From the IMG/VR virus record IMGVR_UViG_2606217116_000003: a stretch of 9,792 bases of DNA; one strand, written 5' to 3'. The position numbers and the translations under genes were made by a program. Positions 1-9,792 of the stretch are shown one piece after another. Every line of letters begins with the position of its first letter. The stretch's first letter is position 1. A model generated the notes under the pieces. The model did no database searches and was not told the origin of the DNA. It saw only the letters and a list, made by a program, of their open reading frames with translations. The DNA is from a virus (lineage: Duplodnaviria > Heunggongvirae > Uroviricota > Caudoviricetes).

Positions 1-1164
1 TTACGCCTTCTTTATATCCTCCATAATTCCACAGTGGGACATATTTGGGACATTATCACCAAAAATGTCGTCTATTTTCCTTGCATGCTCTGTCAAATGA
101 TTAGGCGCAAGGTGAGCATACCTACGAACCATTTCTATGGACTCCCATCCGCCCATTTCCTGAAGCACAGATAATGGGACGCCTGACTGGATCAGCCAGC
201 TTGCCCAGGTGTGTCTGAGGTCATGGAAACGGAAATCTTCAATTCCTGCACGACGACAAGCTGATAGCCATGATGTCTTGCTGTCGATGCGCATCTTCCT
301 GACCGCAGGCGTTGATGTTCCATCTGCTCGCTTAGCCGCCTTGGTATGTACAAACACCCATTTGTGATGCTTGCCTATTTGATCACGCAACACTTTACAG
401 GCGGTATCGTTCAGCGCCACACCAATGGCGCGGTTTGATTTGCTCTCTTCTGGATTCACCCAGGCAACTCGTCGCTGCATGTCGATTTGTTGCCATTCCA
501 GATTTATGATGTTCGACTTTCTCAGACCAGTTGCCAGCGCAAACTTGACGACAGATTTCAGTGGTTCGGGGCACTCATCAATAAGGCGTTTTGCTTCCTC
601 CTTTTCCAGCCATCTGACTCGCTTGTTTCTGACCGCTGGTATCTTGATGACAGGCGCTTTTTCCAGCCACTTCCAGTCGCGTTCTGCAGCACGGAGAATG
701 GCCTTTATCATGGCAAGATGCTTTGCCTTTGTCTGAGTTGATACTGGCTTTGGTTCATAAACAGGCGGTTCTTTACCTTTCCTGATGGCGGCCTGAACTT
801 TCTGTTTCCATATTTCTTTCGTCTTTCTGTTATGCATTCTGCTTACAGCAGAGTAAATCTTTGCCTCCGAGATATCTTTAAGCCTTATACCCTCAAAATG
901 TTCAAGCCAGAACTCAATCCGGCTTTTATCTGAATCGAGAGATTTTTTATCAGCTTTTTCCTCAAGCCATCTTAGGCAGGCCTCTTCAAAAGTGACATCA
1001 GGTAAATCCCCTAGCTTTTCTACTCGCCAGAGTTCTGCTTTTCGCTTGTCGTGCAACTCCTGAGCTTGCCGCTTGTCCTTTGTGCCAAGAGATTCCTTAA
1101 TTCGTTTCCCGCCCGGGAGCGAATACGAGGCATACCATATTTCATTTCTGCGGAAGAGTGACAT
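1..1164 (-). CDS. int: Phage integrase, tyrosine recombinase (P22/DLP12-type lambdoid Int), 387 aa
   Basis: Full-length ORF from ATG at 1164 to stop at 1-3. Translation has the tyrosine-recombinase catalytic signature (R in ...ATGLRKSNI..., [11 protein letters not shown], ...VRRYAHL). N-terminus [23 protein letters not shown] matches recalled DLP12/P22-type integrases. Gene ends at the window edge, so att is off-window. Confidence 0.93.
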
Positions 1165-1391
1165 TTTCTTTCCTCTGTTATGCCATCACCCGCGCTCACC
1201 TGGACAGTATGCAGCGGAGACTGAAGCGCCGCAATGCAAGCTTGCCGTGTTGTGAGGTAAGGAGATTTTGGCTTGGTTGGATCTTTACGTGTTGCCTGTA
1301 GGCGGCCTGTTCGTATCCAGTTGGTGGCGGTTGGTCTGGATATCTTAAGAAACTGACAGGCCTCATCGAGTGTGAGGCTGTATGGCTCCAT
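1020..1391 (-). CDS. xis: Excisionase / recombination directionality factor (AlpA/Xis-like HTH)
   Basis: ATG at 1389-1391 preceded by GGTGA RBS. N-terminal [31 protein letters not shown] is a typical Xis/AlpA helix-turn-helix. Sits immediately upstream of int and overlaps it. The 3' end is uncertain because the ORF runs about 145 nt into int. Confidence 0.6.
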
Positions 1392-1696
1392 TATTTCACC
1401 TCTTGCTGTGTCATTGTTGAAAAATGGATACCAGCTCGTTGCTGCCAGACGATCCAACCGAGAGTCATATCCCATGCCATGTATTCGTTATCGCCGTTTT
1501 TTGCTCTCCGACGATCTACTAAGTCACCGAAACGCTTTTCCATGAATAATTCATAGGCTTCGCGTTCAACTGGCTCTACTTCCAGAGATACGAGTGCGAT
1601 TTCATAAGCACGGCGCTCAATATCGTCTCGAACCTCTAGGCTGCTGATTCGTTCTTTGATTTCTTTAATCAGTTCTTTATTGGTAAATGTGGTCAT
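1391..1696 (-). CDS. yfdT: Hypothetical prophage protein, YfdT-like (101 aa)
   Basis: 101-aa ORF whose stop overlaps the xis start (TAATG), indicating translational coupling. Length and position after a yfdS-like gene match the recalled CPS-53 yfdQRST arrangement. No function inferable from sequence. Confidence 0.55.
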   Translation of the reverse strand: MTTFTNKELIKEIKERISSLEVRDDIERRAYEIALVSLEVEPVEREAYELFMEKRFGDLVDRRRAKNGDNEYMAWDMTLGWIVWQQRAGIHFSTMTQQEVK

Positions 1697-2058
1697 TATG
1701 CTCCAGCCTCCGGTGCTTTTGGCATTACTGCCCAGTGAGTGATATTGACGTTTTCAAGGTCCCCGACCTGAAATGTCCACTGCCATTCTCCGGTTTCTTT
1801 TTGTCCCCAGGTGTACCAGAGAGAACGCCAGCCAATCAGCCAGCCTTCTCCATTAGCATCAAATAACAGAACACTTTCATTTGCTGGTGGCAGTTCAGCT
1901 GACACTGGTATTATTTTGTTTTCCAGTGCCGCACATTTAGCTTCAAGCGCGTCGAATTTACGTACCAGGTACTCAGCATTTGTTTCGTTCACTTTCAGAT
2001 CTCGCGGTACACATTTCCCGCGAAGAAACCCTTCCATTTCGAAAACATTCATGCGCAT
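1696..2058 (-). CDS. yfdS: DUF551-like phage protein, YfdS-like (120 aa)
   Basis: 120-aa ORF with the C-terminal W-rich motif ending ...NITHWAVMPKAPE typical of DUF551 phage proteins. Overlaps the upstream gene by 10 nt and abuts the downstream gene by 1 nt, consistent with an operon. Confidence 0.6.
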   Translation of the reverse strand: MRMNVFEMEGFLRGKCVPRDLKVNETNAEYLVRKFDALEAKCAALENKIIPVSAELPPANESVLLFDANGEGWLIGWRSLWYTWGQKETGEWQWTFQVGDLENVNITHWAVMPKAPEAGA

Positions 2059-2585
2059 TTGCGTAACTCCGATAAATCGTTAAAACGTTCCATAAACATC
2101 CCGTAGGCATGACCCGGTGCCAGTGGAATCACGTTGAACATCTCTGTTGCCGGGATGCCTTCCAGTACAGGCCAGAAAGAGCCATCATCAAGCCCGAGAT
2201 CGCGGCGTTCGGTTGCCAGCATGATGAGATCGGCATATTTCACGGGTGTACTCATAACTGGGGGTAACCCGTATTTCTCACGGATTACGGCGTCTATTTT
2301 TTCTTCCATCCGTTTATAGTCAGGAAGAAGGCGTTTCAGTGGTGCGGGAATGTCCTGGCAATACGCTTCTGTTGCATCATGCATTAACGCTTCAAAAGCA
2401 AATTCCTGCGGCACCAGCTGGCTGCAAAGAACCGCATGTTGGGCGACGCTGTAGAAGTGCGAAAGATGACCGGCAAAGCGACAGATATTTGAAAGGGAAA
2501 CCGCGATATCGTTAATATCGATGTCGTCTTTATTTATCTTGTCATAATAAAAATGCTTCCCGGAAAAAGTTTTAATAAATGACAT
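2049..2585 (-). CDS. yfdR: HD-domain phosphohydrolase, YfdR-like (putative 5'-deoxynucleotidase), 178 aa
   Basis: Likely true start is the internal ATG at 2583-2585 (MSFIKTFSGKHF...) preceded by a GGAGAA RBS, not the track start at 2612. HD motif is visible (...FEALMHDATEAYCQD...). Recalled as near-identical to E. coli YfdR. Confidence 0.8.
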   Translation of the reverse strand: MSFIKTFSGKHFYYDKINKDDIDINDIAVSLSNICRFAGHLSHFYSVAQHAVLCSQLVPQEFAFEALMHDATEAYCQDIPAPLKRLLPDYKRMEEKIDAVIREKYGLPPVMSTPVKYADLIMLATERRDLGLDDGSFWPVLEGIPATEMFNVIPLAPGHAYGMFMERFNDLSELRKCA

Positions 2586-2712
2586 TTTGTTCTCCACGTA
2601 TATGCACTGCACCGCGCTGAATTCTGGTAAAAGGAAGCCCTCACCATCCGGCGATTATTGAGTTAATTACGTTTCCATAAATGCCCCCGCAGGGGCATTT
2701 GCAGTAATGAAA

Positions 2713-3276
2713 TCAGGCGGTGAAAGTACCAATAAAGGTTTCTACTTTGCTGTCTTTGAATTTCTCAACAAGCAGATCACGAAATTCGTTAGCCATTTCT
2801 TCCTGCACCGCTTCCAGCTGAATAATGCGCAGAACCAGTACAGGACGATCGCCAGTGATAATGCTGAGGCGTAATTTAAACGGACGTTCTTTCAGACCTT
2901 CAAACGGAACGCATTTAAATTCAAATGCCACTGGCATAATGTCTTTGGTCTTCGCTTCGACAGACTCCATCAGGGAGCGTTTGCCGCTGAAGTCATTATC
3001 TTCAAAATCAGCGGTCTGGTTTGCTTCAATCGTGATTTTACGGACTGCCGCAGCCGCTTTTGTTGCCTGAATGGCGTCACCATTAGCATCAAAGCCCACA
3101 AGGTAGTCGGCCCAGTCTTCGATCCATTCTGCCAGTGACTTCTGGGAGTTACGCTCGCCGTTAACAGACAACAGAGCAGAGAACGGTGCTGTCTTTTTCA
3201 GTTTGAGAGTGGCAGTGTTATCTGCGTGACCTGGCTCATCAATAGTACCCAGGTTAAGCACACTGACGGCACGCAT
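2713..3276 (-). CDS. yfdQ: YfdQ-like (DUF2303-family) prophage protein, probably 5'-truncated
   Basis: ORF from the first ATG at 3276. The same frame stays open about 71 codons further upstream with no ATG/GTG/TTG and crosses the Q start on the other strand. This implies the gene lost its 5' end at a deletion junction. Confidence 0.55.
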
Positions 3277-3443
3277 ATTATCGGCATCGATAAAGCAGCG
3301 GGTGCCTTCATCTGCAAGATCTTTAGAATAACGGGTACCGTGGCATTTGAAGAGAAGTATGGCTCCCAGCTGGAGCTGATATTTCGTTTTATCGATCGCG
3401 CACTGGCGATTGGTGTGCTGGCCTGATTTTGTGGAGAAAGTTA

Positions 3444-3827
3444 ATGCGTGATATTCAGATGGTTCTTGAACGTTGGGGAGCGTGGGCGGCTAATAATCAT
3501 GAAGATGTGACCTGGTCGTCCATTGCCGCCGGTTTTAAGGGATTAATTCCTTCAAAAGTAAAATCTCGCCCGCAATGTTGTGACGATGACGCGATGATCA
3601 TTTGCGGGTGCATGGCCCGTCTGAAAAAGAACAACAGCGATTTGCACGATTTATTAGTAGATTATTATGTAGTCGGTATGACATTCATGTCACTGGCAGG
3701 TAAGCATTGCTGCTCTGATGGTTATATCGGGAAAAGGTTACAGAAGGCTGAGGGCATAATTGAAGGGATGTTAATGGCATTAGATATCCGGTTAGAGATG
3801 GATATCGTTGTTAATAACTCTAATTAA
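3444..3827 (+). CDS. quuD: Late-gene antiterminator Q (DLP12 QuuD-like, 127 aa)
   Basis: ATG at 3444 with GGAGAAAG RBS; the track's TTG at 3429 is rejected as the start. Small Cys-rich protein ([12 protein letters not shown]...HCCSDGY) recalled as matching DLP12 Q. Position immediately upstream of the late/lysis region fits. Confidence 0.75.
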
Positions 3828-3860
3828 TATGCCAATTGTTTACTAAAAATTATTAAAAAT

Positions 3861-3878
3861 GGGGCGTTGAGACGCCCC
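3861..3878 (-). terminator. Intrinsic terminator for leftward transcription (porin transcript end)
   Basis: Perfect 7-bp stem GGGGCGT/ACGCCCC with a 4-nt loop. On the minus strand it is followed by a U-rich run (AUUUUUAAUAAUUUUU). It lies between the convergent Q and porin genes. Confidence 0.5.
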
Positions 3879-4015
3879 CAAAAATAAAGGGTAATATATA
3901 ACAGAAGGTTTATATAGTTAGAAGCAAGGTTGTGCTTCTAAAGGAAGTGGCTGGAGGGACCATTTATATGTGGGGGAGCCACCCCCCCCCGCAACATATC
4001 TTTTTCGTAATCAGA

Positions 4016-5113
4016 TTAGAACTGGTAAACCAGACCTACAGCAACGATGTCATCAGTGCTTACACCGAGTGCTTTAGTGAAGTCATTTTTGTCAAGCAGG
4101 TTGATTTTGTAATCAACGAAAGTAGACATATTTTTGTTGAAGTAATAGGTTGCACCTACATCAACATATTTGACTAAGTCCTGATCGCCCCATACTCCAA
4201 GATCCTTACCTTTAGATTGCAGGTAAGCAACGGACGGACGCAGACCGAAATCGAACTGATATTGTGCAACAGCTTCGAAGTTTTGGGCTTTATTAGCAAC
4301 GAAGTGATCAGCAAATACAGTCATATTCTGGGTTTCAGAATAGGTAGTGGCCAGGTAAATGTTGTTAGCGTCATATTTCAGACCTGCGGCCCAAACTTCT
4401 GCATTTTTACCGGAAGCAAATACTTCAGGAAGAACTTTCCCTGCATTAACTTGAGTGTCGGTACGATCAGATTTCGCATAAGTTGCACCGATACCGAATC
4501 CTTCGTATTCATAGGTAGCAGAGAAACCGAAGCCATCACCGTTACCTTCAGTGTAGTTATCGAAATCGCTACGATCGTTTTTGCCTTGGTACTGAGCAGC
4601 AAAGTTCAGACCATCAACCAGACCAAAGAAGTCGTTGTTACGATAGGTTGCAACACCAGTGGTGCGACCAGTCATGAACACATCTGTTTGGGTCCAGGTA
4701 TCGCCACCGAATTCTGGCAGAACGTCAGTCCACGCACCGATGTCGTATGCTACACCGTAGTTACGGCCGTAATCGATTGAGCCGTAGTCACCGAATTTCA
4801 GGCCTGCAAATGCAAGACGGGTTTTGTCTTTGGAGGAACCTTGAGATTCAGCGCGGTTGCCTTTGAATTCATATTCCCACTGACCGAAACCAGTCAGTTG
4901 ATCGTTGATTTGGGTTTCACCTTTGAAGCCAAGACGGGCATAAGTAGTATCACCATCATCTGCATCATTAGAGGAGAAGTAGTGCTTAGCATTAACTTTC
5001 CCGTACAGATCCAGCTTGTTACTGTCTTTATTATAAATTTCAGCTGCCTGAGCAGACATCGCCATCAGTACTGATGCAGCTACAGCAGAAATTGCCACTG
5101 TTAATTTTTTCAT
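4016..5113 (-). CDS. nmpC: Outer-membrane general porin, NmpC/Lc (OmpC/OmpD family), prophage moron, 365 aa
   Basis: True start is [23 protein letters not shown] (signal peptide) at ATG 5111-5113; the track's upstream start at 5173 adds 20 aa with no signal-peptide logic. Classic porin motifs and C-terminal ...VGLVYQF. Appears intact. Confidence 0.9.
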
Positions 5114-5540
5114 CGTGAGCCCTTTTTTTGAACTATTATTAAAAAATGATGTCACTGCGCGATAAATATTCATCTAATCAATGTGATTATTTCAAGATGT
5201 AAGTTTTGGTTTCTCGTTTGATTTGTGAAGTAGATCTCTATTTTTATCTGAACTTTTTTCTATCGAATCCTATTCATAGCTCTTTGCTGAATAAAAATAA
5301 ATCTATTAGCCAATTTATATTAACGGCTGTTATTTATAAGCGCTCTATAATTTGAAGGTTCAATTTAAATAAGCTAAAAATAACACTGGAAATAATTTGT
5401 TGGTTATTTGTTGAGATTTGCTTATGTATTTGTAGTGGTGTTTTCAATACTCGGTAGCATTCTCGCAAATATCATTTAGTGGTTTACGTACGTAAAAAAT
5501 TGGTTATGCTGTTAAGAGTGGTTACTTCGTCACACAGCTT

Positions 5541-5574
5541 AAACCCGCCGTCGAGCGGGTTTTTCCATTTTTTG
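5541..5574 (+). terminator. tR'-like intrinsic terminator upstream of the lysis genes
   Basis: Stem AAACCCGC/GCGGGTTT (8 bp, 6-nt loop) followed by TTTCCATTTTTTG, on the + strand about 110 nt upstream of the holin start. Confidence 0.7.
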
Positions 5575-5685
5575 AGTCTCGATATTAGCTGATAACCCAA
5601 TACCTGAGTTATTCACTGACTCCGAGTCTGTTACGTTTCGTAGTATTCCCTCAATTTACACCCGCTTTGTCTGCGAGGTGGGGTT

Positions 5686-5901
5686 ATGAAATCCATGGAT
5701 AAGTTAACAACGGGTGTCGCCTATGGCACCTCAGCAGGTAGTGCCGGGTACTGGTTTTTACAGCTGCTAGATAAAGTCACGCCCTCACAGTGGGCGGCAA
5801 TTGGAGTGCTGGGTAGCCTGGTATTTGGCCTGCTGACGTACCTGACAAACCTTTATTTCAAGATTAAAGAAGATAAGCGCAAGGCTGCGAGAGGTGAATA
5901 A
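5686..5901 (+). CDS. S: Class II holin / pinholin with dual-start motif (phage 21 S-like, 71/68 aa)
   Basis: GAGGTGGGG RBS, then MKSMDK... giving Met1 and Met4 starts (antiholin/holin pair). Two transmembrane segments ([19 protein letters not shown] and [17 protein letters not shown]), charged C-terminus. Stop overlaps the next ATG (TAATG). Confidence 0.85.
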
Positions 5902-6125
5902 TGTCGCCATCATTACGCAAGGCTGTAGCAGCTGCTATTGGTGGTGGGGCTGTTGCCATAGCGTCTGTGCTCATCACTGGTCCGAGTGGTGACGATGGTC
6001 TGGAAGGTGTCAGCTACATACCATATAAAGATATTGTTGGTGTATGGACTGTATGTCACGGGCATAACCGCGATTATCTCCGCTCTGGTTATCTGCATCA
6101 TCGTCGGCCTGTCATGGGCTGTTAA
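5901..6125 (+). pseudogene. R: SAR-endolysin (R21-like lysozyme) remnant: N-terminal SAR domain and catalytic-triad region only
   Basis: First about 55 codons ([55 protein letters not shown]) match a SAR endolysin N-terminus. The reading frame then runs out of frame into Rz-derived sequence and stops at 6125. The C-terminal lobe of the enzyme is absent. Confidence 0.75.
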
Positions 6126-6516
6126 TCATTACCGTGATAACGCCATTACCTACAAAGCCCAGCGCGACAAAAATGCCAGAGAACTGAAGCTGGCGAACGC
6201 GGCAATTACTGACATGCAGATGCGTCAGCGTGATGTTGCTGCGCTCGATGCAAAATACACGAAGGAGTTAGCTGATGCGAAAGCTGAAAATGATGCTCTG
6301 CGTGATGATGTTGCCGCTGGTCGTCGTCGGTTGCACATCAAAGCAGTCTGTCAGTCAGTGCGTGAAGCCACCACCGCCTCCGGCGTGGATAATGCAGCCT
6401 CCCCCCGACTGGCAGACACCGCTGAACGGGATTATTTCACCCTCAGAGAGAGGCTGATCACTATGCAAAAACAACTGGAAGGAACCCAGAAGTATATTAA
6501 TGAGCAGTGCAGATAG
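5986..6516 (+). CDS. Rz: i-spanin Rz homolog lacking its native start; frame open upstream into the endolysin remnant
   Basis: From about 6067 the translation ([40 protein letters not shown]...QKYINEQCR) matches recalled lambda Rz nearly residue for residue, but the native MSRV start is missing. Upstream in-frame starts exist (GTG 5986, ATG 5995) inside out-of-frame endolysin sequence. Confidence 0.75.
6275..6457 (+). CDS. Rz1: o-spanin Rz1 lipoprotein, embedded in the +1 frame of Rz
   Basis: AAGGAG RBS then ATG at 6275. [20 protein letters not shown] lipobox followed by a proline-rich segment ([15 protein letters not shown]). 60 aa, matching recalled lambda Rz1. Confidence 0.88.
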
Positions 6517-6547
6517 AGCTGCCCATATCGATGGGCAACTCATGCAA

Positions 6548-6841
6548 TTATTGTGAGCAATACACACGCGCTTCCAGCGGAGTATAAATGCCTAAAGTAA
6601 TAAAACCGAGCAATCCATTTACGAATGTTTGCTGGGTTTCTGTTTTAACAACATTTTCTGCGCCGCCACAAATTTTGGCTGCATCAACAGTTTTCTCCTG
6701 TCCAATTCCCGAAACGAAGAAGTGATGGGTGATGGTTTCCTTTGGTGTTACTGCTGTCGGTTTGTTTCCAACAGTAAACGTCTGTTGAGCACATCCTGTA
6801 ATAAGCATTGCCAGAGCGGCAGAAAACAACATTTTTTTCAT
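6548..6841 (-). CDS. bor: Bor lipoprotein (serum-resistance-associated, Iss family), 97 aa
   Basis: True start is the internal MKKMLFSAALAMLITGC (lipobox) at about 6841, not the track start at 6889. Remainder matches recalled lambda Bor (...ETITHHFFVSGIGQ...LEARVYCSQ). Confidence 0.9.
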   Translation of the reverse strand: MKKMLFSAALAMLITGCAQQTFTVGNKPTAVTPKETITHHFFVSGIGQEKTVDAAKICGGAENVVKTETQQTFVNGLLGFITLGIYTPLEARVYCSQ

Positions 6842-7200
6842 CTTATTATCCTGCATTGTTAAAAACGGCAGAATCCTATGTGACAACAATTAAACGATAG
6901 TTAAATGGATTGATGAAAATTAAAACTATATAGGTGGATGCTCAGCCTATTGGAGGAGGGGGGCACTCAGAATCCTGTGGAATGAAATAAACCGCTCTTT
7001 CTGTCCATTACCCTTTTAGCTGCGCTGTATCGTCGCCGTATTCCCGCATTAACCATGACCGTAGCCCGACGGGGAATTCCTTCTGCGTGAGTGTGCGGGA
7101 ATAATCAAAAACGATGCACACCGGGTTTTACTGTGCTGACAGACGCAGGGTTACCCTCATAGTCGCTTTTCCGGTGCGATGGTGGAAGAAACCGGGATGT

Positions 7201-7395
7201 TTATTCATCATCACTTTGGATTGATGTATATGCTCTCTTTTCTGACGTTAGTCTCCGGCGGCAGGCTTCAATGACCCAGGCTGAGAAATTCCCGGACCCT
7301 TTTTGCTCAAGAGCGATGTTAATTTGTTCAATCATTTGGTTAGGAAAGCGGATGTTGCGGGTTGTTGTTCTGCGGGTTCTGTTCTTCGTTGACAT
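7201..7395 (-). CDS. ylcI: Small basic protein, YlcI/DUF3950-like (64 aa), adjacent to cos
   Basis: 64-aa ORF (MSTKNRTRRTTTRNIRFPNQMIEQINIALEQKGSGNFSAWVIEACRRRL...). The basic N-terminus followed by a short helix is reminiscent of ribbon-helix-helix proteins. Conserved position just upstream of cos in lambda-like genomes, as recalled. Confidence 0.55.
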   Translation of the reverse strand: MSTKNRTRRTTTRNIRFPNQMIEQINIALEQKGSGNFSAWVIEACRRRLTSEKRAYTSIQSDDE

Positions 7396-7559
7396 GAGGT
7401 TGCCCCGTATTCAGTGTCGCTGATTTGTATTGTCTGAAGTTTTTTTTACGTTAAGTTGATGCAGATCAATTAATACGATACCTGCGTCATAATTGATTAT
7501 TTGACGTGGTTTGATGGCGTAGATGCACGTTGTGACATGTAGATGATAATTATTATCAT

Positions 7560-7780
7560 TTTGCGGGTCCTTTCCGGCGATCCGACAGGTTACGGGGCGG
7601 CGACCTCGCGGGTTTTCGCTATTTATGAAAATTTTCCGGTTTAAGGCGTTTCCGTTCTTCTTCGTCATAACTTAATGTTTTTATTTAAAATACCCTCTGA
7701 AAAGAAAGGAAACGACAGGTGCTGAAAGCGAGCTTTTTGGCCTCTGTCGTTTCCTTTCTCTGTTTTTGTCCGTGGAATGA
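7560..7780. other. Lambda-type cos site: cosQ region, cosN (GGGCGGCGACCT at about 7595-7606), cosB with Nu1-binding repeats
   Basis: Sequence ...CGACAGGTTACG|GGGCGGCGACCTCGCGGGTTTTCGCTATTTATGAAAATTTTCCGG... matches the recalled joined right and left ends of phage lambda. An 11-bp inverted repeat GGAAACGACAG/CTGTCGTTTCC lies just upstream of Nu1. Confidence 0.85.
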
Positions 7781-7783
7781 ACA

Positions 7784-8303
7784 ATGGAAGTCAACAAAAA
7801 GCAGCTGGCTGATATTTTCGGTGCGAGTATCCGTACCATTCAGAACTGGCAGGAGCAGGGAATGCCCGTTCTGCGAGGCGGTGGCAAGGGTAATGAGGTG
7901 CTTTATGATTCTGCCGCCGTCATAAAATGGTATGCCGAAAGGGATGCTGAAATTGAGAACGAAAAGCTGCGCCGGGAAGTTGAAGAACTGCGGCAGGCCA
8001 GCGAGACAGATCTCCAGCCAGGGACTATTGAGTACGAACGCCATCGACTTACGCGTGCGCAGGCCGACGCACAGGAGCTGAAAAATGCCAGAGACTCCGC
8101 TGAAGTGGTGGAAACCGCATTCTGTACTTTCGTGCTGTCGCGGATCGCAGGTGAAATTGCCAGTATTCTCGACGGGATCCCCCTGTCGGTGCAGCGGCGT
8201 TTTCCGGAACTGGAAAACCGACATGTTGATTTCCTGAAACGGGATATCATCAAAGCCATGAACAAAGCAGCCGCGCTGGATGAACTGATACCGGGGTTGC
8301 TGA

Positions 8304-8329
<26 letters not shown>
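7784..8329 (+). CDS. nu1: Terminase small subunit Nu1 (DLP12 NohD-like), 181 aa, intact
   Basis: MEVNKKQLADIFGASIRTIQNWQEQGMPVLRGGGKGNEVLYDSAAVIKWYAERD... is the lambda Nu1 winged-HTH N-terminus. Full length with normal stop, 190 nt downstream of cosN. Confidence 0.95.

Positions 8330-9792
<1,463 letters not shown>

Follow-up and report, generated by a model that had tools for sequence, protein, structure and literature searches.

A deletion scar between yfdQ and quuD in a DLP12-family prophage of Escherichia coli and the recurrent breakpoint at its right end

How a truncated cargo gene came to lie back to back with a Q antiterminator gene, with neither immunity nor replication genes between the two, is the question raised by the IMG/VR record IMGVR_UViG_2606217116_000003, a stretch of 9,792 nucleotides that was analysed at its full length and is hereafter called the window. 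The cargo gene is a minus-strand yfdQ-like gene, its neighbour is the plus-strand Q gene quuD, and an initial annotation made from the sequence alone had read positions 3277-3443 as a deletion scar between them. Our analysis indicates with high confidence that this interval contains the scar left when a single internal deletion took about 8.3 kb out of a lambdoid prophage of the DLP12 family at the tRNA-Arg gene argU, and that the right end of this deletion lies at a recurrent site.

The breakpoint was placed by megablast of window 2600-3900 against 5,426 complete E. coli genomes. In this comparison the query split, with full-length yfdQ genes matching up to 3337, DUF968-quuD modules matching from 3331-3332, and K-12-type quuD loci matching only from 3403-3409. 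The yfdQ-side parent reads ...AATAACGGGTA/AAATCATC (ACGGGTA/AAATC; a slash marks the join here and below) and the DUF968-side parent reads ...CTGCATGCGGATA/CCGTGGCATT (GCGGATA/CCGTGG), which sets the junction at 3336-3337/3338, inside the interval first proposed, with the crossover somewhere within the shared TA at 3336-3337 and no finer placement possible. The short direct repeat for which the initial annotation had suggested looking is this 2-nt TA, and it sits within a wider match of CGGGTA to CGGATA (5/6 positions), with no filler DNA and no mobile element. Short shared bases without an element or filler characterize microhomology joining, while both flanks keep the order and orientation that they have in a relative carrying the intervening DNA, as is characteristic of a simple internal deletion. 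Codon 67/68 of YfdQ is fused to the last 30 codons of a DUF968 gene, the two open reading frames (ORFs) being cut internally and in opposite orientations. Compared with intact relatives, window 1-3337 shows 99.7-99.85% identity and 3338-3844 is identical, without a single-nucleotide polymorphism (SNP). The join is not made directly to Q, as had been claimed: the last 89-91 nt of the DUF968 gene and a 17-nt spacer come in between, and the quuD ATG lies 106 nt to the right of the break. Nothing that we found contradicts the deletion itself, and the junction as such appears to be without function.

The minus-strand frame that runs across the junction was examined using the ORF list and the translation of window 2713-3540. 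The ORF at 2713-3276 encodes 187 residues from an ATG at 3274-3276, and the frame stays open beyond this ATG for exactly 71 sense codons, until a stop at 3490-3492, crossing the quuD ATG (3444-3446) in antisense, much as initially described. In BLASTP, the remnant frame matched the YfdQ protein of Escherichia phage PhiR49_1 (274 residues) at 207/207 residues, covering residues 68-274, with no similarity upstream. The attribution of the open stretch to yfdQ therefore stands for only 20 codons (codons 52-71, window 3277-3337) and falls for the other 51. Membership of the 187-residue ORF in the YfdQ/DUF2303 family is clear (Pfam PF10065, E = 2e-61, cut-off 26.6 bits); the remnant covers positions 65-269 of the 269-position profile, short of the full-length domain, where the intact protein covers 2-269. 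Full-length homologues are 274 residues long, a length that we also take to hold for K-12 yfdQ and that is consistent with the "YfdQ family protein" matches. Thus the 5' truncation was correctly called, and the alternative of homologues of about 187 residues starting at this ATG falls away, the ATG being the internal Met88 of YfdQ. No Shine-Dalgarno sequence was seen by eye before Met88, DNA homology to intact yfdQ ends at window 3337, and the Prokaryotic Genome Annotation Pipeline (PGAP) describes the remnant in E. coli KSC9 as "DUF2303, missing N-terminus" and incomplete. Judged by its sequence, the gene is a dead, 5'-truncated pseudogene remnant. The 51 remaining codons lie opposite the DUF968 remnant, the spacer, and the quuD 5' end; a stop-free run of this length occurs in random sequence with P ~ (61/64)^51 = 0.09, and it is hence a mild coincidence and no evidence of coding.

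What the deletion removed can be read from the argU prophage of the E. coli strain HCP5S3_I2, which holds the yfdQ part and the DUF968-quuD part in one element. The interval missing from the window corresponds to positions 3438-11708 of L008 (the HCP5S3_I2 locus), or 8,271 bp, and one clean deletion of this length is sufficient for the junction, in agreement with the initial view of a loss by one event or a series. The same gene order is found in PhiR49_1 (PV340568; 45,270 bp), which was deposited as a "complete genome" phage record with a named host. The arm from int to yfdQ is 99.7-99.8% identical between the window and these two relatives, with equal gene order, and from the DUF968 3' end through quuD HCP5S3_I2 is identical to the window and PhiR49_1 is 90% identical. 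Unlike the window, both relatives keep the repressor, cro-like, replication, and nin-like genes (within the 8,271 bp in HCP5S3_I2), and phages mEp460 and SfIV likewise differ from it in having a full-length yfdQ. The arrangement at the junction is absent from 50,697 phage records, none of which covers ≥80% of the 2600-3900 query, so that no intact phage sharing the Q-adjacent arrangement came to light.

The ancestor would have had the order int-xis-yfdT-eaE-yfdR-yfdQ-yfdP-...-ymfK(cI)-ymfT(cro)-ymfL-...-O-like-yfdN-dam-lexA-like-rusA-kilA-N-DUF968-quuD-porin-lysis genes, and illegitimate joining through the 2-nt TA inside the imperfect CGGGTA and CGGATA match would have fused yfdQ to DUF968. 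On gene content, the lost module is of the e14/CPS-53 type and not the lambda exo/bet-N-O/P-nin set. The initial annotation, which listed exo/bet, cI/cro/N, O/P, and nin as missing, was thus right that immunity, replication, and the nin equivalent are gone and wrong about the gene set. With the repressor, the cro-like gene, the region between these two in which both early promoters would be expected, the replication initiator, and the nin-like genes absent, the prophage would be unable to maintain immunity, replicate, or be induced. A 66-bp remnant of an xis-like helix-turn-helix gene lies between intD and yfdT at window 1326-1391 (PGAP); it is also present in the otherwise intact HCP5S3_I2 prophage, and excision functions may therefore be impaired already in the "intact" relatives.

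The right end of this deletion is not chosen at random. IMG/VR was scanned for the right-hand 29-mer of the hotspot preceded by anything but the intact context, a scan that reaches junctions within about 9 nt of the site with exact right-hand 29-mers, in a database that over-represents sequenced isolates. The scan yielded 12 contigs, and the 10 distinct left partners that they contain all meet the right side at ...TA/CCGTGGCATT; a further 30 contigs have the intact context. The right breakpoint is common to the nucleotide to at least 10 different deletion alleles. All mapped left partners (Table 1) lie to the left of the site and in direct orientation. The alleles were found in isolates of pig, poultry, human, and environmental origin and are spread over two prophage backbones, and four of the junction types were found again in complete genomes (19, 12, 3, and 2 genomes). 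The E10-type state of decay, seen in 12 complete genomes, brings sequence from downstream of a 516-bp ORF up to the DUF968 stub as ...TGTTGTGGATA/CCGTGGCATT, with a right end that equals that of the window to the nucleotide; H2 has the stub fused to what remains of the O-like gene and, separately, a deletion in the left arm. Differing left partners and a few SNPs suggest that the junction types are independent.

Scans shifted from the site by 25 nt rightwards and by 45 nt leftwards served as controls and gave no junctions among the matches checked; of the 27 matches of the right-hand control, the six checked were all an intact sister allele. Scans of metagenomes and GTDB yielded no new junction types. 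One deletion runs in the opposite direction, giving a direction bias of 12 contigs to 1: in L085 4141-4171 (UViG_2671180298_000003) the left side of the DUF968 site is kept, and ...GCATGCGGATA is joined to TCTGGTCTG in a DUF1441 (terminase small subunit-like) gene, with the Q and lysis genes removed and the parent site at L086 2990-3005 reading GGCTTTA/TCTGG. As a separate observation, H2 (L087 6001-6201) and L016 6835-7035 share the junction of the O-like gene to DUF968 (CGCCAGGGTA/CCGTGG), and their right flanks are two alleles with 5 differences over about 70 positions; either this pair of sites recombined twice, or one flank was replaced later by recombination.

The left ends also share a sequence feature. 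In an alignment of nine left parents with the right parent CTGCATGCGGATA/CCGTGGCA, the bases matching the right parent were concentrated at -5 (8/9), -4 (8/9), -2 (9/9), and -1 (8/9), as against 2/9 at -3, 4/9 at +1, and 6/9 at +2, with matching at background level at all further aligned positions, and the shared motif is GGNTA. The 11.6-kb left region contains 50 GGNTA sites, and the probability that 7/8 TA junctions would be preceded by GGN is 1.3e-6. Position -3 carries the base of the left parent in every junction, while the A at -1 in L019 can only be that of the right parent, and all junctions are therefore compatible with a break at GGA/TA or GGAT/A. A gapped GG.TA match with a free middle base is not expected from simple annealing; it would fit recognition by a protein, or a 3' end ...TATCC that annealed and was then proofread back past the mismatch.

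How the junction in the window arose from these elements can be weighed against three other histories. A sequencing or assembly artefact would be in keeping with eight probable sequence errors at 3953-3987, which show that the source of the window is imperfect; against it, a 201-bp probe with the junction at its centre matches 19/5,426 complete E. coli genomes at 100% identity, all independent and of pig, chicken, cat, human, or water origin, and the exact junction recurs in the IMG/VR contig L011 and in one gut metagenome contig, so this explanation can be given practically no credence. Scarcely more can be given to a mosaic recombinant of a CPS-53-like early-left arm and a DLP12-like Q-lysis arm, or to a natural module boundary. 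Lambdoid phages are mosaic, and yfdQRST is presumably best known from CPS-53 and quuD from DLP12 in K-12, but one intact argU prophage and one deposited phage genome hold both arms at 99.7-100% identity to the flanks of the window, and a junction that cuts two ORFs internally in opposite orientations is not a module boundary. A stepwise history deserves more weight, although we consider it unlikely: an E10-type deletion through a 5-nt GGATA microhomology would have come first, followed by a deletion from yfdQ to the same junction. E10-type prophages with the identical right end do exist in 12 complete genomes, the window equals E10 throughout 3338-3844, and the product would be the same from an intact or an E10-type parent. 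However, E10 and intact HCP5S3_I2 share derived alleles that exclude the window on both sides of the junction, at 3067 on the left and at 3845, 3849, 3870, 3871, 3937, 4286, and 4550 on the right, of which 3067 and 3845-3937 lie near it, and these positions suggest that the window lineage branched off earlier than the E10 deletion. A second deletion that hit exactly the same nucleotide would, moreover, still need a hotspot. A single deletion from an intact parent thus remains the preferred history, and the question becomes what fixes its right end.

As our best guess, the DNA at CGGATA/CCGTGG would suffer a site-specific strand break or carry a stalled 3' end, and microhomology-guided end joining or template switching would afterwards connect this end to GGNTA sites. 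DUF968 proteins have been described as an Orf-like DNA-binding domain fused to an HNH nuclease (PMC4118853), and the site lies three codons after the HNH motif (...HHDELHAD/TVAFEEKYG), a closeness that is suggestive only. We tentatively propose, as a possibility short of an even chance, that CGGATA/CCGTGG is a genuine site-specific break or strand-transfer site, cut by the phage Orf-HNH protein or by another nuclease or recombinase, and that misrepair to GGNTA repeatedly deletes the immunity and replication region and so grounds DLP12-type prophages in different lineages. A further explanation, which we rate as doubtful and yet serious, is that the fixed right end marks the former position of an insertion sequence (IS) in DUF968, from which transposase-dependent excision (e.g., with the IS-excision enhancer IEE) took the IS together with a variable length of adjacent DNA, leaving the other flank intact to the nucleotide and rejoining by microhomology. 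IEE-mediated excision has been reported to produce deletions of a few nt to >40 kb adjoining an IS, IEE has microhomology end-joining activity, and it is reported in >30% of E. coli assemblies, being abundant in enterotoxigenic and enterohaemorrhagic strains (PMC9943667); several carriers of hotspot junctions come from pigs. Such an origin, for which this very signature has been documented (PMC9943667), fits the precise fixed end, the variable other end, the microhomology, the opposite-direction L085 deletion, and the restriction to one allele lineage, and CGG/NTA/CCG resembles a short symmetric insertion target. Against it, neither IMG/VR nor the 60 complete-genome loci that best match the intact module yielded a DUF968::IS allele at the site. 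Those 60 matches contain a single IS, in UTAK-6, which apparently lies in quuD, judging from a split quuD annotation, and the IS3-family element of LR882057, which had been considered as a candidate at the hotspot, sits in yfdT.

Other origins of a fixed end were considered and set aside. A hairpin or cruciform at the site received no support from folding L008 11640-11830 as DNA (z = -0.4), where a weak stem, CGG-ATA-CCG, and an inverted repeat of 8 bp at a distance of 91 nt were all that appeared, at about chance level. A transposon-like end was not apparent, as neither strand of the window holds a second TACCGTGGCATTTGAAGAG at ≤3 mismatches. A secondary attachment site for Int was not apparent either, the argU att region sharing by eye only CGTGG with the site and the left partners showing no inverted core-type arm at -13 to -8. 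By-eye comparison with consensus sequences, which we do not count as evidence, brought out nothing convincing for gix/hix, XerC/D dif, DnaA boxes, sigma-54 promoters, or Chi, nor for gyrase, topoisomerase I, CRISPR protospacer adjacent motif geometry, or several restriction sites.

Several points weigh against a single deletion to a site-specific breakpoint. No enzyme, hairpin, inverted terminal repeat, or IS was found at the hotspot; the scans are limited to about 9 nt around the site, and their counts give no overall share of the deletions that use it; B4103-1, P13-6, EC05, and ETEC4073 have deletions that make no use of the hotspot; and the 500 bp to the right of the junction hold no informative SNPs, so that flanks reshuffled by recombination would permit a two-step history. 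In addition, the sister allele GAAGAAAAG, which differs at +17 and is the allele of all six control contigs checked, shows no hotspot junctions. This absence could reflect lineage age or sampling and not necessarily a sequence determinant, and it is compatible with a lineage-specific cause such as an IS footprint or with younger active phages that have no decayed copies in the database. As for the shape of the other deletions, P13-6 (L057 12291-12975) has a remnant of the LexA-like gene joined to a DUF968 remnant that retains 564 bp, and B4103-1 (L006 4103-4277) has a yfdP remnant joined to a remnant of the O-like gene, which presumably resembles the yfdO-yfdP arrangement of K-12 CPS-53.

Window 3338-3426 is identical to L008 11709-11797, which identifies the stub as DUF968; the intact protein matches PF06147 (E = 3e-81) with a weak HNHc_6 match in addition, and the 30-codon remnant is too short to score alone. 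In KSC9, PGAP labels it "DUF968, missing N-terminus," back to back with "DUF2303, missing N-terminus." The quuD gene is identical to the copy in intact relatives, with no SNP in 3338-3844. A consensus scan found no promoter-like site between the junction and the quuD ATG, and a new Q promoter created by the junction was accordingly rejected. The deletion would have removed the early-right promoter upstream of quuD, leaving an intact gene without a recognisable promoter. Q-driven lysis would be crippled anyway because the downstream lysozyme gene is truncated. This truncation is a second internal scar, at 6064-6065, where about 340 bp are lost relative to E10 (E10 9215-9554) and the lysozyme gene (rrrD homologue, 5901-6065) abuts Rz, and the lysis cassette is therefore without a complete endolysin. 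The features of the locus, the left partners, and the lost segment are collected in Table 1.

Table 1. Features around the scar, left partners of the recurrent breakpoint, and content of the lost segment (window coordinates or contig)
Feature	Location	Strand	Details
Deletion junction	3336..3337		TA common to both parents; window reads ...AATAACGGGTA/CCGTGGCATT
yfdQ (DUF2303) remnant	2713..3337	-	625/825 bp kept (residues 68-274); 5' 200 bp (residues 1-67) deleted
Chance open antisense frame, 51 codons	3338..3489	-	No YfdQ similarity, no DUF2303 match; noncoding
DUF968 (ydfU-like, Orf-HNH) 3' remnant	3336..3426	+	Last 89-91 of 990 bp; stop codon 3424-3426; left edge is the recurrent breakpoint
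Terminator-like hairpin	3360..3378	+	TGGCTCCCAGCTGGAGCTG then ATATTTCGTT; within DUF968 remnant, between junction and quuD; consensus scan only
Native DUF968-quuD spacer, 17 nt	3427..3443	+	Equal spacing in intact L008 (11798-11814)
quuD, intact 127-residue Q antiterminator	3444..3827	+	Phage_antitermQ E = 8.5e-54, full profile; WP_001204780.1
yfdR (HD-domain 5'-deoxynucleotidase), intact cargo, neighbour of yfdQ remnant	2049..2585	-	PGAP of identical KSC9 locus; weak YfbR-like and HD_3 Pfam matches
Left partner, xis region	L020		
Left partners, yfdR, two sites	L017, L019		
Left partner, yfdQ	Window type		
Left partners, two sites between yfdP and repressor gene	L021, E10		
Left partner, ymfL	L014		Parent inferred from diverged allele
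Left partners, O-like gene, two sites 54 bp apart	L015, L016		
Left partner, site beside repressor gene	L013		Different prophage backbone with other integrase
Lost segment (HCP5S3_I2), start			First 200 bp of yfdQ, yfdP, two small ORFs
Lost segment, immunity			ymfK (LexA-family, cI-like repressor), ymfT (cro-like), ymfL
Lost segment, replication side			DUF4222 gene, O-like helix-turn-helix replication gene
Lost segment, next			yfdN (PerC-like), Dam-type methylase, LexA-like gene
Lost segment, end			rusA, KilA-N gene, 899-901 bp of DUF968

The assignment of the element to the DLP12 family is supported by its position and by its gene content. The window begins at the intD stop, and in KSC9, to which window 1-8560 is 99.9% identical, the element lies beside tRNA-Arg argU, with the tRNA gene 15 nt from intD. 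The gene order is intD (1-1164, minus strand), the xis-like remnant, yfdT, an EaE-like gene, yfdR, the yfdQ remnant, the DUF968 remnant, and quuD, followed by an oppositely oriented porin, essD, the truncated lysozyme gene, Rz, iss/bor, ylcI, nohD, and a terminase-large remnant cut by an IS3-family element; a quuD-type Q, an opposed porin, essD-R-Rz with R truncated, bor, and nohD are thus all present.

Further irregularities were observed in the same stretch. All seven mismatches and the single 1-nt gap relative to KSC9 over 8.56 kb are concentrated in the 35 bp at 3953-3987, which also differ from E10 and HCP5S3_I2; they abolish a perfect terminator hairpin 3' of the porin (GGGAGGCAACGCCTCCC) and make a run of C, and the cluster probably stems from a local error in the sequencing or assembly of the source of the window and not from biology. 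At 6895-7184, between iss/bor and ylcI, the window lacks ybcV-ybcW, a segment that spans about 1.1 kb in E10, B4103-1, and HCP5S3_I2; residual similarity is confined to short diverged matches at 7018-7128. At 8562-9792 lies the IS3-family element, with an IS911-like left end (TGTAGTGGCACACTAAATTTGGCCACC), which interrupts the terminase-large remnant and runs off the window; its insertion point is spanned by 0/5,426 complete genomes, the closest (KSC9 and 17 others) ceasing to match at 8560. An Rfam scan returned only isrC (8629-8751), within this element.

The scar itself is ordinary decay, both truncated genes having already been flagged by PGAP, and taken alone it documents how one DLP12-type prophage became defective. 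What appears to be new is the nucleotide-precise recurrent breakpoint together with its GGNTA partner motif, and in the open-access text of the literature on DUF968, DLP12, and argU deletions the hotspot is not described. Prophage decay is usually treated as random deletion and selection, whereas at least 10 independent deletion alleles here end on one nucleotide and have the GGNTA motif in common at their other end. If a specific enzyme or replication event is responsible, the site would provide a testable mechanism for the recurrent grounding of a very widespread E. coli prophage, as well as a natural system for the study of microhomology-guided end joining in E. coli, and a site-specific break would represent a previously undescribed sequence-directed route of prophage domestication. 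If the site is the footprint of a lost IS instead, it would offer a clear natural example of IS- or IEE-driven genome reduction.

Deletion hotspots with a fixed end are known from Int-promoted deletions of the lambda b region, from the terB arrest site, and from rolling-circle nick sites. The site described here resembles these and the IS/IEE deletions in having one nucleotide-precise shared end and a variable other end that resembles the fixed site, and it differs from them in that no att core, IS end, Ter site, or nickase was identified at CGGATA/CCGTGG. With respect to its cargo, the window resembles the yfdQ-yfdR-yfdS-yfdT locus of CPS-53 (KpLE1) in K-12 in carrying homologous yfdQ (DUF2303), yfdR, and yfdT, and it differs in that the first 67 YfdQ residues and the promoter region are gone; overexpression of K-12 yfdQRST inhibits replication initiation, and YfdR binds DnaA (PMC4776307). 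Among the closest known systems is also the cryptic prophage DLP12 of K-12 (intD ... quuD-nmpC-essD-rrrD-rzpD-borD-nohD), which has been reported in 74% of strains and of whose type defective forms with a deleted immunity region are already known (PMC6379469). The window shares with it the argU site, an integrase protein accession seen across strains, the quuD product, the order porin/essD/R/Rz/bor/ylcI/nohD, and the defective, or "grounded," state. Unlike in the window, homology of the K-12-type alleles upstream of quuD starts only at window 3403-3409. We take K-12 DLP12 to carry ybcN-ninE-ybcO-rusA-ylcG upstream of quuD and exoD/peaD/renD/emrE as int-proximal cargo in place of yfdT-yfdR-yfdQ. 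The window and K-12 DLP12 thus differ in their early region and bear different scars.

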